This document shows, in pieces, positions 29,119-42,304 of a DNA stretch of 45,220 nucleotides (position 1 is the first letter of the stretch; each line of letters starts with the position of its first letter). Where the stretch lies: NCBI GenBank assembly GCA_045605805.1, contig JAZUQR010000016.1:1-45220 (forward strand). Reading direction: 5' to 3'. A program made the translations under genes and the position numbers. Under the pieces are notes generated by a model. That model made no database searches. It was not told where the DNA came from and saw nothing but the letters and a program-made list of their open reading frames with translations. The stretch comes from Alphaproteobacteria bacterium (GTDB lineage: Bacteria > Pseudomonadota > Alphaproteobacteria > CAAHEQ01 > UBA3637).

Positions 29119-31149
29119 CTATACACCTATGACATACCGCAAAACAAAGCTTTTATTGTCAAAGGTGATACCGCTCGCTGTTCCTGTGGCATCATTGTCT
29201 GCATGGCCTGTGATTCGCTCATTGTTGATATACAGATATTTTGATGCGACCTTTAGGAATTTGTTAGCTGCCATTATGAAGGTGTGCCCATAACCATTCA
29301 TCTGCCCCACAAAGGCTTTGGATAAGAAAAATTGATGGAAATTAGTGTCCTGCACCACTCCATCAACTATTCTGCTGAATATAAGCACTATGCCATGTGG
29401 CTGTGCTGATACCGGCTCTGACAGTTCCGCCTTGTGTCCTGCGGTCATATACATTCCACCGGACCATAGTATTCTTCCTGTGCCGCTGCTTCCTTTAAAT
29501 ACAGGAATCCAGGCTTGCCATTTGTTGCTATAGTACAGCCTATCCCATATTTCCCTGTAAGCAACAGAACACCTTGTAAGCACCTGCCGGACTTGGTTTC
29601 CTGAACCTTCCCTGACAACTTCAATGCTTCCTGATGCACTACCGCTTAAAGGACTATTCAAAAGTGTGGTAGATACTCCACTTTCAAACACATAGAATCC
29701 CGGTTCTGTCAAGCTGTCCAAATCTGTACCTGTTTGTATTACAACCGGACTTGTTATCAGATGCCCCAATGTGGAATACATGGGAAGGGCAAATTCAACC
29801 CCTTCCTGCTCTGACACCTTGCCGAATGCTACACCCCTTCCTGAAGCGTTGAAATCAAGCAAAGTGAAGGCTGTTGACAAATCAATGGTGTTTGTGATAC
29901 TGCCAAAATAATCTGTCACTGTCAACCGCACATCATAAGCAAAATTGGTATCAAATAATGCCCCTGTTATAATGCTCTTGTTGTATGAATAGCCTGTTCC
30001 GCTTTCAATGGATTTCCATGTGGTTTCAGATTGCTTCTTGTACTCTATCTTGTAGCTTGAAGCGTTCTTATTGCTTGCTGATGCCACACTGAAGGATGCC
30101 ATTATTTTTGCATTGGTACCTTCATAGTTTTCCACACCCTTGGCATCCGTTCTTACCACTGAAAATGCTGTGATTTTCGGTGCGGTGTATGGTATACGAT
30201 TAAAGGTCTTTTCTGTGCTTGCTGTCCTTCCTCTGCTATCTGTCACAGTGATAATGGCTGTCACATTTCCGCTACCGGTCAAAACTGATGTTGTTGGTGT
30301 GGCTCCTGAATAGCTTTTGCCTTCAATTACAGTTTTGTAGGTCTTTATGGTGGAACCATAAGCCCCGGATGCATTGATAGTGAATTTTGCCTTGGATTTC
30401 CCTTGTACCAGGCTCCCAAACTGTGCTGCATATGCTGTGTTGGTATCTGCCACCGCCACACTGCCTATTGTCGGCACAACTGAAGAAGGCACCCTTGCTG
30501 TGAATGATACAGTTTTGGTGCCAATTAGTGTGCTTCCATTATAGGTTTTTACAGTGATGGTCACAGTGCCGGAAGTGGCATTTGGTATTTCCTCTGCCAA
30601 GGATAAAGGCACTGTCCAGGCTTTGCTTGTTCCAATATCACTGCCTATGGTGCCGGTAGCACTTCCCATCTTATATGTCAAGGTATGGTCAAAGCTACCT
30701 GATGCCCTTGGTAGTGAAATAGTTATGCTTTTACCCATATCCACTGCTGTGGCTGATAATTTAGGTGTTGTTGCCCTCGGTATGGTGGTTAATGCCTGGG
30801 AATAACTCTGATTGCTTGAAGAAAACTGATCATGTGTTATTCTTGCAGACACAGCCAAGGATTTTGAACCATCCGCACTGTGGGCTATATTCAATGTTTC
30901 GGTAAATACCACAATCCCTGATGATGTTATCTTGTCAGATGTTGTGATTGCTTCTGTGTATTGTGTTCCGTTAATCGTCACATACACAGTGCCGGTGCCA
31001 TATGTGGTATATCCGGTATTGGTACGATATACCCTTACCGATACTGTCACATTGGATGTGTTCCCGGTCACACTTTGGCTATTCTGTGTAATTGTGATTT
31101 TATACTTGATTTTATCATTAGTAGTTGACATTGCATTTGATGTTGCCAT
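29119..31149 (-). CDS. DUF859-like baseplate/receptor-binding protein (tip set A)
   Basis: QSVTGNTSNV, LTTIPRAT, VTDSRGRT, GRGVAFGKVSE; knob-like DLDSLTEPGFY; C-terminal LWSG...LRYVIGV. Confidence 0.8.
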   Translation of the reverse strand: MATSNAMSTTNDKIKYKITITQNSQSVTGNTSNVTVSVRVYRTNTGYTTYGTGTVYVTINGTQYTEAITTSDKITSSGIVVFTETLNIAHSADGSKSLAVSARITHDQFSSSNQSYSQALTTIPRATTPKLSATAVDMGKSITISLPRASGSFDHTLTYKMGSATGTIGSDIGTSKAWTVPLSLAEEIPNATSGTVTITVKTYNGSTLIGTKTVSFTARVPSSVVPTIGSVAVADTNTAYAAQFGSLVQGKSKAKFTINASGAYGSTIKTYKTVIEGKSYSGATPTTSVLTGSGNVTAIITVTDSRGRTASTEKTFNRIPYTAPKITAFSVVRTDAKGVENYEGTNAKIMASFSVASASNKNASSYKIEYKKQSETTWKSIESGTGYSYNKSIITGALFDTNFAYDVRLTVTDYFGSITNTIDLSTAFTLLDFNASGRGVAFGKVSEQEGVEFALPMYSTLGHLITSPVVIQTGTDLDSLTEPGFYVFESGVSTTLLNSPLSGSASGSIEVVREGSGNQVRQVLTRCSVAYREIWDRLYYSNKWQAWIPVFKGSSGTGRILWSGGMYMTAGHKAELSEPVSAQPHGIVLIFSRIVDGVVQDTNFHQFFLSKAFVGQMNGYGHTFIMAANKFLKVASKYLYINNERITGHADNDATGTASGITFDNKSFVLRYVIGV

Positions 31150-31163
31150 ATCTCTGCCCCCTA

Positions 31164-40304: not shown

Positions 40305-40306
40305 CC

Positions 40307-42304
40307 TTAAATTCCTCTGCTTGTCCTTCTGTACATCCTGCCCATCCTTGCATCAATGGCAGGTGCTAATTCACCAACCAAGGCACCGGAATCAAGATAT
40401 ACTTTCATTCCAAGCATCTGTTCCAATAATTCAATTATTCTTGTTAATCTCGCAACCACCGCTTCATTGCTGATTGATTGCGGATTTCTCATTTGTAGTT
40501 CGTTCAAATCCTCGGCAACCCTGGATAGCCATGCCCGGTTATGTTCCAAAGGAACCACCGCTTCAGCACCGGTACCTTCTAACAAGCCCACCTGCCCTTT
40601 TTCAAGAATACCGCCCCTTGCAAGCCTGGGTAATGATAATGTTGGTACAGTACCCACATTGATTCCCGGCAACTTATTTGCAAGCCGGATTGCACTGTTA
40701 ATCATGCCAATGCCCCGGTTAATGGCATTCTGTACACCTGAAATAACACCATTCATGCCTGTTCTTACCGCATTTCCCATGGCAGTGCCTATTGATGTGC
40801 CTATGGTTGAAAATCGGCTTCTAATCTGCGACCATAAGCCACTGAAGAAGGAACCCCAACCACTGAAGGCAGACCGAATATTGCTCCATGCACTACGGAA
40901 TATGCCACCAAACCATGAAGCCACATTCCCAAATGCACCACGAATGCCGGACCATATGCCGGAAAAGAAGCTTCTTGCACCATTCCACGCATTACGAACA
41001 CCATTCCAAGCTGACCGGAATTGACTAGCAAACCATGAACCAACAGAAGAAAAGGTGCTTCTTATTCCACTCCAAATGCCCCGGAAATACGCACCGGCAG
41101 ATGCCCATGTATTTCTTATAGCTGTCCATGCTGTGGAGAAATAGCCCCTAATCTGTGTCCATGCTGTGGAAGCTTCCCTGCGGATGGATGCCCATGCACG
41201 AATCCAAAAATTGCGGAATCCTTCGACATTGTTCCATAGGTATACAAAAGCAGCCACAAGCCCGGCAATAGCTGCCACCACCAAGCCAATAGGATTTGCA
41301 AGCAATACTGCATTGAAGGCAAGCATTGCAGTTCTTACCACCCTGATGGCATTGGCCGCTGCTGTCATTATTCTTCCCCAGGAAATAATCAAAATGAATG
41401 TGCCTATTGCTGTGGTAGCACCAATAATCACACCAACCCAAGCTTGAATTGTGCTTTGGTTGCTCCTGATCCATGTAACCATATCTCTGAATCTATCAAT
41501 CATTGATACAAGAAGTGGTATGGCTCTTTCTGCCATGCTTGCGATTGCATTCCGTAATGCTGTCATGATAGGCTCGCCAATTCTTCCGACTTCTGCCATG
41601 GCATCTGACAATCTTTCCTGTGCCTGCCTTGAAGCAATAATATCCGCATTGGTTTCTTTATATTGAACAGATGCAGCACTGTATGTATCATTCAATGTCT
41701 TTACTATTAAATCTTGCCTTTCTTCCTCTGTGGCAAGACCGGCAAGCTTATCATTGAAGGATTCCACACTTATTCCTGACCATTCAAGGGCATCTGCAAG
41801 GCTCCCTTGCACTTCTCCCAGGGAAGCACTGTGATTGATACCTTCTGCCAATCCTTCCAAGGGCAATGATTCACCAAAAGTGGCATATACACCTGTTAGG
41901 ATATTTGTCAACCCTGCCAATTCTTCTTCATTGTCTGCTATTTGTGCAAGCTGTTGTGATGCTTCCACCGCTTGCCCTGAATCGCCAAGCACCGCATTCA
42001 ATTCTGAATATGTGGTTTTGGCTGCTTCTGTGCTTAGTCCAACAGTTAAAAAGGCAGATTCAAGCAATCCCATTTCTGCCCTGTATTCTCTTGTACCTTC
42101 TACCGCACCGATAAATGCACCACCGATTGCAAGCCCGGCTGTTGCTATGCCTGTTGCAACAATACCGGCTACCCTTCCAATTCTGCTAAATGCACTTTCT
42201 GTTTCATTGGCCGAATTGTTCGCCCTTGTGGTTGTATCTTCAAGTGCGTTGTTCGCTTCTGTATTGTCTATTGCTATTGTTCCAAGCAATCTAAACAATT
42301 CCAT
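40307..42304 (-). CDS. Tape measure protein A (665 aa, Arg-rich and Lys-poor)
   Basis: MELFRLLGTIAIDN; LANPIGLVVAAIAGLV; 11-residue W/F repeats; PRLARGG..GAEAVVPL; ends SRGI; directly after the tail chaperones. Confidence 0.9.
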   Translation of the reverse strand: MELFRLLGTIAIDNTEANNALEDTTTRANNSANETESAFSRIGRVAGIVATGIATAGLAIGGAFIGAVEGTREYRAEMGLLESAFLTVGLSTEAAKTTYSELNAVLGDSGQAVEASQQLAQIADNEEELAGLTNILTGVYATFGESLPLEGLAEGINHSASLGEVQGSLADALEWSGISVESFNDKLAGLATEEERQDLIVKTLNDTYSAASVQYKETNADIIASRQAQERLSDAMAEVGRIGEPIMTALRNAIASMAERAIPLLVSMIDRFRDMVTWIRSNQSTIQAWVGVIIGATTAIGTFILIISWGRIMTAAANAIRVVRTAMLAFNAVLLANPIGLVVAAIAGLVAAFVYLWNNVEGFRNFWIRAWASIRREASTAWTQIRGYFSTAWTAIRNTWASAGAYFRGIWSGIRSTFSSVGSWFASQFRSAWNGVRNAWNGARSFFSGIWSGIRGAFGNVASWFGGIFRSAWSNIRSAFSGWGSFFSGLWSQIRSRFSTIGTSIGTAMGNAVRTGMNGVISGVQNAINRGIGMINSAIRLANKLPGINVGTVPTLSLPRLARGGILEKGQVGLLEGTGAEAVVPLEHNRAWLSRVAEDLNELQMRNPQSISNEAVVARLTRIIELLEQMLGMKVYLDSGALVGELAPAIDARMGRMYRRTSRGI

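Follow-up and report, generated by a model that had tools for sequence, protein, structure and literature searches.

Siphophage tail assembly is taught as nucleation by one TMP-Dit-Tal complex, TMP being the tape measure protein, and in the canonical tip module (SPP1, TP901-1, p2, 80alpha) the TMP, Dit and Tal genes follow the G/GT chaperones; the question raised by the present locus is what a phage with two such modules would build from them. The window, by which we mean the whole 45,220-nucleotide stretch analysed, is a whole circular temperate siphophage of ~45.1 kb, with a 140-nt terminal repeat on its contig. It encodes RecT-like and RecE-like proteins, and its single serine recombinase best matches an integrase family. 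After the shared tail parts its late genes run in the order TMP-A, [TMP-B, Dit-B, Tal-B, fibre-B], Dit-A, Tal-A and a DUF859 RBP (Table 1), with module A split such that TMP-A lies right after the chaperones and its other three genes at the end. In our best reading, to which we assign a probability of roughly 60%, one genome gives rise to two virion types: its single tube set would serve two full and different tip sets, both of which include a tape measure, and two kinds of particle would probably come out of one infection.

Table 1. Tail genes and slot borders of the window, by position in the whole stretch
Feature	Coordinates	Strand	Assignment or detail
RBP-A, DUF859-type tail protein	29119..31149	-	PF05895, E 2.8e-61; phrog_372, E 2.7e-107
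Tal-A, hub, PF06605	31164..32786	-	Pfam and PHROGs; member of A-position clade
Dit-A	32761..33405	-	phrog_33, E 1.6e-21
Conserved leader before Dit-A, right slot border	33405..33448	-	ACAAAAGATAACC ... GGTTATC ATG
Fibre-B, putative receptor-binding fibre, 634 aa	33453..35357	-	weak tail-fibre PHROG matches
Tal-B, hub, PF06605, 679 aa	35376..37415	-	Pfam and PHROGs; own C-terminal extension
Dit-B, 231 aa	37415..38110	-	phrog_33, E 3e-20
TMP-B, cassette tape measure	38114..40249	-	phrog_6900, 2e-85
Terminator-like hairpin and T-run, left slot border	40282..40308	-	12 pairs, loop 3; directly after TMP-A stop
TMP-A, lineage-defining first tape measure	40307..42310	-	PHROG TMP families
Putative tail assembly chaperones G and T	42314..43053	-	between MTP and TMP; frame layout; phrog_1021
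Major tail (tube) protein (MTP), shared	43255..43860	-	phrog_885 major tail protein, E 1.3e-57
Tail completion / Neck1 protein, shared	44234..44650	-	phrog_5, E 1.1e-13

The sequence-only reading had described two intact sets of paralogous but diverged tip genes, with differing fibre types downstream of the two Tals, served by a single major tail protein and a single chaperone pair, and each part of that description was borne out. All eight tip-set ORFs are intact, lie on the minus strand and have Shine-Dalgarno (SD)-like sequences. The TMP pair is 24% identical (E 7e-31), the Dit pair 36% (E 9e-47) and the Tal pair 41% over the N-terminal ~390 aa (E 1e-87), and RBP-A and fibre-B are unrelated. 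No second copy of the major tail protein was found among the window ORFs, and there is one neck set, with a single head-tail adaptor and a single tail-completion protein. A single pair of probable chaperones lies directly upstream of TMP-A, with G at 42619-43053, an overlapping T frame open at 42314-42682 on the same minus strand and a -1 slip site, GAU UUU UUC, near 42650; the region matches phrog_1021, a family of unknown function, at E 1e-18, and position and frameshift layout point to the chaperone role. Both tape measures (TMP-A 667 aa, or 665 aa counted from MELF; TMP-B 711 aa) match mostly families annotated as TMP, 31 PHROG families for TMP-A (phrog_1535 at 2e-54) and 20 for TMP-B, to which Streptococcus prophage TMPs are 46-52% identical. 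PF06605 recognises both Tals (84.2 and 70.7 bits, gathering cut-off 31.3), as do phrog_3558 and phrog_9886 (1e-120 to 1e-133); Tal-A has 540 aa, with GTG at 32759 as its likely start. The Dits are assigned by profile similarity and by position after a TMP or before a hub; the true ATG of Dit-A is at 33405, in an ORF callable from 33435. A PDB sequence search with both Dits gave no match, and Pfam at E<=0.01 gave none for either TMP, either Dit or fibre-B, the last of which has tail-fibre PHROG matches of 2e-5 to 3e-4. RBP-A is 676 aa long.

The source is a metagenome bin in which related phages (C12 and C16) co-occur, and an assembly chimera of two of them has to be weighed. Another phage contig of the bin, C12, matches the window in gene order, with counterparts 75% (TMP-A), 62% (Dit-A) and 69% (RBP-A) identical; TMP-A was absent from the genomes of the bin's family in a host search (0/79). 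The joins at 33.4 kb and 40.3 kb, marked out for checking by the sequence-only reading, are both crossed by contigs of other runs: a 9.2-kb contig is collinear from Tal-A to TMP-A and spans both cassette junctions, and two further runs gave shorter contigs that each bridge one of them. These independent contigs, the terminal repeat and the repetition of the order in 34 de-replicated clusters from many samples contradict a chimera, whose probability we consider negligible. The dual tip layout is thereby confirmed as real and, as had been proposed, no assembly artefact.

The recurrence of the layout was examined in 144 related metagenomic loci, which were de-replicated to 79 clusters, 34 of them dual-TMP, 14 single-TMP and 31 undeterminable (34/48 classifiable clusters being dual). 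In IMG/VR, every locus that extends beyond TMP-A has another TMP immediately behind it (29/29, a count outside which lie ten further loci ending inside TMP-A and three distant ones), and two GTDB MAG contigs and GenBank MT835521.1 are also dual, so that the search suggested earlier for relatives keeping both triads in order found them in number. By sequence comparison set A is conserved, the median pairwise identity among 25 dual clusters being 56% for TMP-A, 52% for Dit-A, 54% for Tal-A and 21% for TMP-B, and the B slot holds at least three or four unrelated tip types: under our own labels, 10 clusters have a PF06605-type tip there, 11 have one with a phrog_538 hub and 11 have others. These other cassettes also seem to encode tips, as judged from profiles and structural models: seven PHROG-tested cassette proteins of L011, L012 and L023 all fall in tail or unnamed families (three in phrog_1194), a 124-aa phrog_1194 protein has a predicted tail-tube/Dit-like domain fold (pLDDT 86.7, TM about 0.5), and the phrog_538 protein matches hub proteins, the structure matches of relatives' cassette proteins being weak (TM 0.3-0.5). 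In a Tal tree all 29 A-position Tals lie in a single clade of 43 rows (UFBoot 100, SH-aLRT 99) that contains no B-position Tal, and the 10 B-position Tals fall in at least three places. Tal-B groups outside the A-position clade with the Tal-B proteins of L053 and L071, and the single-set L130-L134 group forms an adjacent branch at the same unresolved fork. In single-TMP relatives each set type is the sole tip set: nine clusters have a B-like Dit/Tal and five an A-like one, with homologous MTP and chaperone genes in front; the single-set phages L130-L142 also have weak fibre-B homologues (29-54 bits among the matches listed) behind Tal-B-like hubs.

Such turnover is what would be seen if one set, most likely B, were a passenger or a store of spare parts that rides a recombination hotspot and adds little to virions. 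Consistent with this, B turns over fast, its borders resemble recombination joints, the phage has RecT-like and RecE-like genes, and an orphan TMP persists in cluster L033/L047. We nevertheless consider a passenger cassette very unlikely, given that no dual locus examined has a broken B gene and that the dN/dS of these genes is 0.08-0.50, that SD-like sequences precede the B genes as they do all eight in the window, and that the slot is filled in 33/34 dual clusters (counting L015, whose contig ends inside TMP2; L033/L047 is the exception). The dN/dS check put forward with the sequence-only reading shows purifying selection on both sets: values relative to L053 are 0.21-0.27 for TMP-A, TMP-B, Dit-B (0.21) and Tal-B, and another 23 comparisons among A and B genes gave 0.05-0.50.

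The shared TMP termini had been read as fitting engagement of the same chaperone, tube and terminator by both proteins. The N-terminal motif, present in 84/94 TMPs, is general to the TMP family; the C-terminal one follows the PF06605 hub type and not the shared chaperones. An HMM of the TMP-A C-terminus, an end of the type preceding PF06605 hubs, matched 32/34 TMPs directly preceding a Dit and a PF06605 hub, 0/15 before phrog_538 tips and 0/12 before other tips. Because the C-terminal motif tracks the hub family, the two TMPs of the window could in principle cross-dock, while those of many relatives cannot; 22/34 dual clusters have a TMP-B end and a B tip of unrelated types, without the A-type motif. 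This co-variation bears on whether the two sets might instead build one composite tail, with mixed or stacked Dit rings, a mixed TMP trimer and two adsorption devices. Phages with two distal tail proteins in one tail do exist, according to PMC13595954, and in the window the two TMP ends are homologous, as are the two hub N-terminal domains; since the TMPs share the C-terminal motif and both hubs are PF06605 (41% identical), mixed assembly could occur here. Correlation of pairwise identities gave no clear preference for TMP-A over TMP-B as the partner of Tal-A (rho 0.46 vs 0.43). However, one tube end cannot be closed by two hubs, each set type is the sole tip elsewhere, and the unrelated B ends of those 22 clusters also argue against a common structure. 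The two TMPs of a genome are unequal in length, with a median difference of 70 aa and a maximum of 510 aa (at least 50 aa in 19/29 pairs), which fits two separate tails better than a mixed trimer. Taken together, these data make a composite tail quite unlikely. Cluster L033/L047, with two TMPs that both have the A-type end and one Dit/Tal set, indicates that a second TMP can exist without a second tip.

The proposal that a slot between TMP-A and Dit-A houses B as a cassette, with gaps of 57 nt and 47 nt at its ends, agrees with the DNA comparison. TMP-B starts 57 nt after TMP-A, and its first ~60 codons are conserved with relatives carrying other cassettes; DNA homology to C12 breaks off ~180 nt into TMP-B and picks up again 44 nt ahead of the Dit-A ATG. 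At the left border, a GC-containing hairpin with a T-run, of differing stem sequence, follows TMP1 in 30/34 dual clusters, whereas it follows TMP2 in 2/33 and the TMP of single-TMP relatives in 2/15; its conserved place makes it a putative intrinsic terminator. At the right border, the Dit-A leader forms an 8-bp helix that covers the Shine-Dalgarno sequence, with compensatory change in 3/8 pairs. It occurs once per locus, in a sub-lineage of 16/34 dual clusters and in 0/23 loosely defined single-TMP clusters, and in the loci inspected the last cassette gene's stop codon lies 1-13 nt before it. These elements, the hairpin after TMP1, the helix over the SD and the nearby stop codon, would suit a phage that uses one module per infection or condition, with hairpin and leader as switches. 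Antitermination and translational coupling are examples of routes by which such switches could work. The hairpin, however, precedes every gene of the B cassette as well as Dit-A, Tal-A and RBP-A, and alone it therefore cannot choose between the sets; moreover, it comes from a consensus-type scan, a kind of scan that is not evidence of function, the leader is confined to the 16 clusters, and no regulator of module choice was identified. We regard alternative use as unlikely on this evidence. The hairpin's position is awkward in turn for simple co-expression of both sets, with which it fits poorly, and no conserved promoter for the A tip genes was found. Neither DNA inversion nor a diversity-generating retroelement appears to be involved, as had been supposed. 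An invertible-segment switch like Gin/G of Mu or Cin/C of P1 was rejected, all genes being on one strand and the cassette having no flanking inverted repeats (only imperfect ones of 24-34 nt were found). For a retroelement, there is no TR/VR-like pair, no direct repeat >77 nt except the terminal repeat and no reverse transcriptase among the 48 window ORFs scanned with PHROGs, a scan that covered the larger ORFs.

In the reading of two virion types from one genome, the late operon combines one shared set (tube, G/GT chaperones, tail completion, adaptor) with two complete tip initiation modules, both of which would be expressed. The C-terminus of each TMP most likely engages the hub and Dit belonging to that TMP's module, so that a tip is nucleated, on either of which the same tube protein would polymerise and the same neck parts complete the tail; the N-terminus common to all these TMPs may help the shared parts to serve both. 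With either tip so served, a burst would hold two virion populations differing in adsorption device, tape measure and, in most relatives, tail length, and the outcome would be constitutive bet-hedging on host range or defence without DNA rearrangement. The slot could be refilled by recombination, with the left crossover in the conserved first ~180 nt of TMP-B and the right one at the conserved Dit-A leader, perhaps performed by the phage's own RecT/RecE-like pair, and the two border elements, hairpin and SD-occluding leader, may determine in what ratio the modules are made. In its full form, to which we give somewhat less than an even chance, this is a widespread gut siphophage lineage with two tails (TMP, Dit, hub, RBP and often length) on one tube protein and no DNA rearrangement, in which a bordered slot swaps tip modules with matched tape measures and terminator and leader tune the ratio.

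We found no report in the literature of a two-tip-module architecture with one tube set. All window parts belong by profile to the families of the canonical siphophage module, and order within the module and the G/GT frameshift are standard; what differs is the presence of two TMPs and two Dit/Tal/RBP sets for one tube/chaperone set, with A split around B. Phages such as K1-5/SP6, CBA120 and phiK64-1 carry several RBPs on one virion with a single tip and one TMP or none. They would resemble the present case in broadening host range through more than one adsorption protein, but here every RBP is accompanied by a separate tip core and TMP. With the Mu G segment and P1 C segment (P1 S/S') the likeness would be one genome with two virion kinds of differing host specificity; in those phages, fibre genes only are exchanged, by site-specific inversion, in contrast to a locus that has no flanking inverted repeats and whose doubled parts include tape measure, Dit and hub. 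Nocturne116 and c2-like phages likewise have two Dit-fold genes per genome. According to PMC13595954, Nocturne116 forms a hetero-hexameric ring from its two distal tail proteins, which share one tail with one hub and a single TMP density, and other phages with two such proteins form two separate rings; here, each Dit comes after a TMP of its own or ahead of a hub of its own. A single tail of the Nocturne116 type, with one TMP and one hub, was rejected for the window, which has two of each. Ca. Heliusvirales (for example Blautia phage NatCom_24097, PV036434.1) are likewise phages of gut Clostridia whose tail region has two Tal-like matches, but have one annotated TMP only and no close TMP-A relative.

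The dual-TMP lineage is common in animal-gut metagenomes, where >120 clusters (90% identity) share 67% identity or more with TMP-A. It is almost unannotated, and the few TMP-A-like clusters with a source name go under 'phage-related protein' or 'hypothetical protein'; it will therefore be given wrong labels by virome annotation pipelines. The co-variation of TMP C-terminus and hub family offers a concrete rule by which phage tail parts can be annotated and matched, and the lineage would be a natural test bed for the basis of tape measure specificity for a tip. The tape measure is the target of some superinfection-exclusion systems, and it is among the parts doubled here. A lineage that keeps two TMP-Dit-Tal complexes under selection would represent a new route to host-range or defence bet-hedging.

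Behind a single tube gene the window carries two complete tail-tip sets, as the sequence-only reading had proposed; open reading frames and profile searches confirm both, and the arrangement can now be generalised to a lineage. On the minus strand the major tail protein gene leads into one G/T chaperone pair, which has a -1 slip site (GAU UUU UUC), and then into TMP-A, TMP-B, Dit-B, Tal-B, fibre-B, Dit-A, Tal-A and a DUF859 protein (RBP-A), all intact and with SD-like sequences before 8/8 tail-tip genes. The claimed paralogy of the sets is borne out by BLASTP (identity 24% between the TMPs, 36% between the Dits and, over the N-terminal domain, 41% between the Tals), as is the unrelatedness of their distal proteins to each other. 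Gaps of 57 nt and 47 nt do flank the B block, and Dit-A begins at the ATG at 33405. Searches of Tal-A, Tal-B, Dit-A and Dit-B against PDB sequences gave no meaningful match.

That this layout is a chimeric join of two phages is contradicted by contigs from other runs that bridge both junctions of the B block and by recurrence of the layout in independent loci. A 9.2-kb contig of another public run is collinear with Tal-A, Dit-A, the ends of fibre-B, Tal-B, Dit-B and the ends of TMP-B, and continues into TMP-A; two shorter contigs from other runs span one junction each. Contig coverage was drawn from four runs, and its absence over parts of fibre-B and the middle of TMP-B is not evidence that these are absent. 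The same bin also holds a second closed phage contig, C12 (42,827 bp with a 28-nt terminal repeat; locus L004 from 8613 to 20000, continuing into L005), with the order TMP-A', TMP-B', Dit-B', hub, two more genes, Dit-A', Tal-A' and RBP, and hence the dual layout of the window. Identity to the window counterparts is 62-77% for its A genes and only 28% for its TMP-B; its Dit-B and hub have no BLASTP match to Dit-B or Tal-B of the window, the hub matching only fibre-B, weakly. Since C12 shares bin and layout with the window and has a different B cassette, two related dual-tip phages co-occur, and cassette exchange between them could take place.

In IMG/VR, TMP-A matched 42 loci, of which 10 end inside TMP-A and 3 are distant; in 29/29 of the remainder a second TMP lies directly behind the first, followed by a variable block of 2-6 kb and then by Dit-A, Tal-A and RBP-A where the contig continues. 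With 18 loci added by a Tal-B search and 80 by a Tal-A alignment search, de-replication (95% identity over half of the shorter locus) reduced 144 loci to 79 clusters: 34 with two TMPs (dual-TMP), 14 with a chaperone, one TMP, Dit and Tal (single-TMP) and 31 unclassifiable because sequence is missing. Among 50,697 GenBank phage records the only close TMP-A relative is the unannotated MT835521.1; a large protein collection holds more than 120 clusters at least 67% identical to TMP-A, mostly on contigs of 38-45 kb. We note that a 114,938-bp IMG/VR contig (L042, L013, L030) contains three dual-tip modules that differ from one another and are spaced about 38 kb apart, and that a 65,784-bp contig (L012, L031) contains two modules of the same kinds; these could represent tandem polylysogeny or concatenated assembly of related phages. 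Gut phages of Ca. Heliusvirales (Blautia phage NatCom_24097, PV036434.1, 10415-19829) have one TMP, two Tal-like matches and a small ORF before the second, an arrangement that may in part parallel a second tip set.

Across the lineage set A is stable and set B is swapped. Median pairwise identity in 25 dual clusters with all genes complete is 56% for TMP-A, 52% for Dit-A and 54% for Tal-A, against 21% for TMP-B. By profile labels the B slot, the variable block between TMP-A and Dit-A, holds a Dit and a PF06605 hub in 10 clusters including the window, a Dit and a phrog_538 protein in 11, and other contents in 11; one more dual cluster is broken by a contig end, and in another (loci L033 and L047) a 1094-aa second TMP is followed directly by Dit-A. 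The three cassettes of the "other" group tested against PHROG (L011, L012, L023) all encode a phrog_1194 protein of about 125 aa and then a tail protein of 600-1000 aa. AlphaFold models support a role of the relatives' B-cassette proteins in the tail tip: the 124-aa protein (pLDDT 86.7) has a predicted tail-tube/Dit-like fold with weak matches (TM about 0.5) to tube proteins, SPP1 Dit and a chain of the phage T1 tail-tip complex, and the phrog_538 protein (pLDDT 71.9) weakly matches hubs (TM 0.2-0.45), including Listeria gp18, a chain of the monocin tip region and an 80alpha baseplate chain. In a maximum likelihood tree of hub N-terminal domains, rooted at the midpoint only, 29/29 A-position hubs fall in one clade of 43 rows (UFBoot 100, SH-aLRT 99) together with 5 hubs of single phages and 9 of unknown context. 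None of the 10 B-position hubs belongs to this clade; they occupy at least three other places. The window Tal-B sits outside the clade beside those of L053 and L071, and the hubs of the single-set loci L130-L134 form an adjacent branch of the unresolved fork that holds this group.

The proposal that B is a cassette inserted between TMP-A and Dit-A stands, with its borders moved from 33453-40249 to the limits of DNA homology with C12, which extends from the TMP-A start across the gap and over roughly the first 180 nt of TMP-B (as far as 40069), is lost there, and returns at 33449. A terminator-like hairpin follows TMP1, the first TMP, in 30/34 dual clusters with quite different stem sequences; such a hairpin follows the second TMP in only 2/33 clusters and the TMP of single-TMP relatives in 2/15. 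At the other border an element of about 44 nt, present in one copy per locus, occurs in 16/34 dual clusters versus 0/23 loosely defined single-TMP clusters, with compensatory changes in 3/8 pairs of its helix, and in the loci inspected the final gene of the cassette has its stop codon 1-13 nt before the element. Hairpin and element may be candidate transcription, translation or recombination-joint elements. At their 5' ends, RBS region included, TMP-B and TMP-A share a 77-nt direct repeat of 70% identity that could be a substrate for unequal recombination. Consistent with the sequence-only reading, the window shows neither inverted repeats flanking the cassette nor repeats of the DGR kind.

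Features of the window, by position (1 to 45,220)
Feature	Position	Strand	Remark
Major tail protein (single)	43255-43860	-	
77-nt direct repeat, TMP-A copy	42231-42307		
Terminator-like hairpin and T-run	40308-40282		begins at TMP-A stop
77-nt direct repeat, TMP-B copy	40176-40252		
~44-nt element before Dit-A	33405-33448		outer 8-bp helix over SD
Two small ORFs after RBP-A	28832-29080 and 28205-28447		unknown function
Serine integrase	25240-26607	+	PHROG, lysogeny
Repressor	24614-24964		PHROG, lysogeny
Palindromic 24-mer, two copies	24234-24257 and 24477-24500		divergent region beside repressor gene
RecT-like annealing protein and RecE-like exonuclease	18189-19070 and 22378-23130	-	
Minor head protein	4592-6028	-	phrog_595/115
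Endolysin	2916-4109	-	phrog_12727, E 4e-54

The window is the whole of contig C16 in a bin of 31 contigs and 1.21 Mb, and by virtue of an exact 140-nt repeat at its two ends it represents a closed genome of about 45.08 kb. By PHROG scans this is a temperate siphophage, encoding, in addition to its lysogeny genes, small and large terminase subunits, portal, minor head protein, scaffold and major head protein, a head-tail adaptor and a tail completion protein, and, for replication and modification, RecT-like and RecE-like proteins, a DnaD-like loader, a methyltransferase and a Mom-like gene. RecT-type recombinases permit exchange at short, diverged homologies, and the RecT-like and RecE-like proteins could support cassette exchange at such sites. 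The endolysin gene lies within the head module, between the scaffold and minor head protein genes; no lysin was found downstream of the tail genes, where only small ORFs follow RBP-A. The minor head protein has C-terminal matches to ADP-ribosyltransferase families (E 2e-4 and 7.5e-4) that are too weak for a domain name. The paired palindromic 24-mers look like operator sites, and a scan for promoter-like sites in the window was uninformative (50 versus 42.2 expected). Another contig of the bin, C4 (10,975 bp), has a 79-nt terminal direct repeat and may be a small circular element.

TMP N-termini sit at the neck, and an N-terminal motif, [LIV]F[RKTE][LI].G.[IV].[IVL], is present in 84/94 complete TMP N-termini. 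TMP C-termini fall into classes that track tip type: an HMM built from the last 50 residues of TMP-A matches 32/34 TMPs directly before a Dit and PF06605 hub, in single and dual phages, and 0/15 before phrog_538 tips and 0/12 before other tips. TMP-A never adjoins its presumed partners, yet a PF06605-type end is always present. The solved Nocturne116 tail places the TMP C-terminal helix in the tail tip with the hub (PMC13595954). These end classes and this placement fit docking of the C-terminus to the cognate tip and use of common neck parts by the N-terminus. Because both TMP ends in the window are of the same class, cross-docking would be possible in this phage itself. Pairwise-identity correlation of TMP-A or TMP-B with Dit-A and Tal-A gave no discrimination (rho 0.33-0.46 for all TMP pairs). 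In the L033/L047 cluster (2598-9977 and 10001-17488, respectively) TMPs of 584 and 1094 aa both have the A-type C-terminus beside only one Dit/Tal/RBP set, whose hub is sister to that of the single-TMP phage L116 (TMP 1020 aa); this may be a recombinant with an orphan TMP-A.

Judging from substitution rates, both sets are maintained: dN/dS (NG86) between the window and its close relative L053 is 0.27 for TMP-A, 0.21 for TMP-B, 0.21 for Dit-B and 0.27 for Tal-B, between C12 and L009 it is 0.05-0.10 for A genes and 0.11-0.50 for B genes, and for other pairs it is 0.08-0.37. Just one set, B-like in 9 clusters and A-like in 5, is present in single-TMP relatives whose tube and chaperone genes are homologous, so each set type is sufficient elsewhere; weak fibre-B homologues lie downstream of B-like hubs in the L130-L134 and L137-L142 loci. 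The best supported reading, to which we give a probability of about 0.6, is that one genome would produce two virion types. Incorporation of both sets into one mixed tail appears unlikely. Tail length is proportional to TMP length, and against a mixed tail the two TMPs of a genome are a median of 70 aa and at most 510 aa apart in length, with 19/29 pairs at least 50 aa apart and a Spearman rho of 0.36 (p = 0.053). At about 1.5 Angstrom per residue, TMPs of the L011/L044 type (664 and 834 aa) would give tails differing by roughly 25 nm, and those of the window (667 and 711 aa) by only about 7 nm. Simple co-expression is difficult to reconcile with a hairpin that precedes both tip sets, and the L033/L047 cluster has a second TMP without a second tip.

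As to the host, TMP-A was found in 0/79 other genomes of the bin's family at E<=1e-30, and the two GTDB matches lie on phage-sized contigs in MAGs labelled Alphaproteobacteria and Acutalibacteraceae. From the runs with matching contigs, the habitat of the lineage is judged to be animal gut or faeces. A phrase search of the open-access literature turned up no account of a phage in which both tape measure and tip module are doubled; its hits concerned chaperone pairs (PMC8407745), TMP internal repeats (PMC3271669) and P2-like tail forms (PMC10612066). These phages would be a new form of the known diversification of host range, made of known parts in an arrangement that we have not found described.
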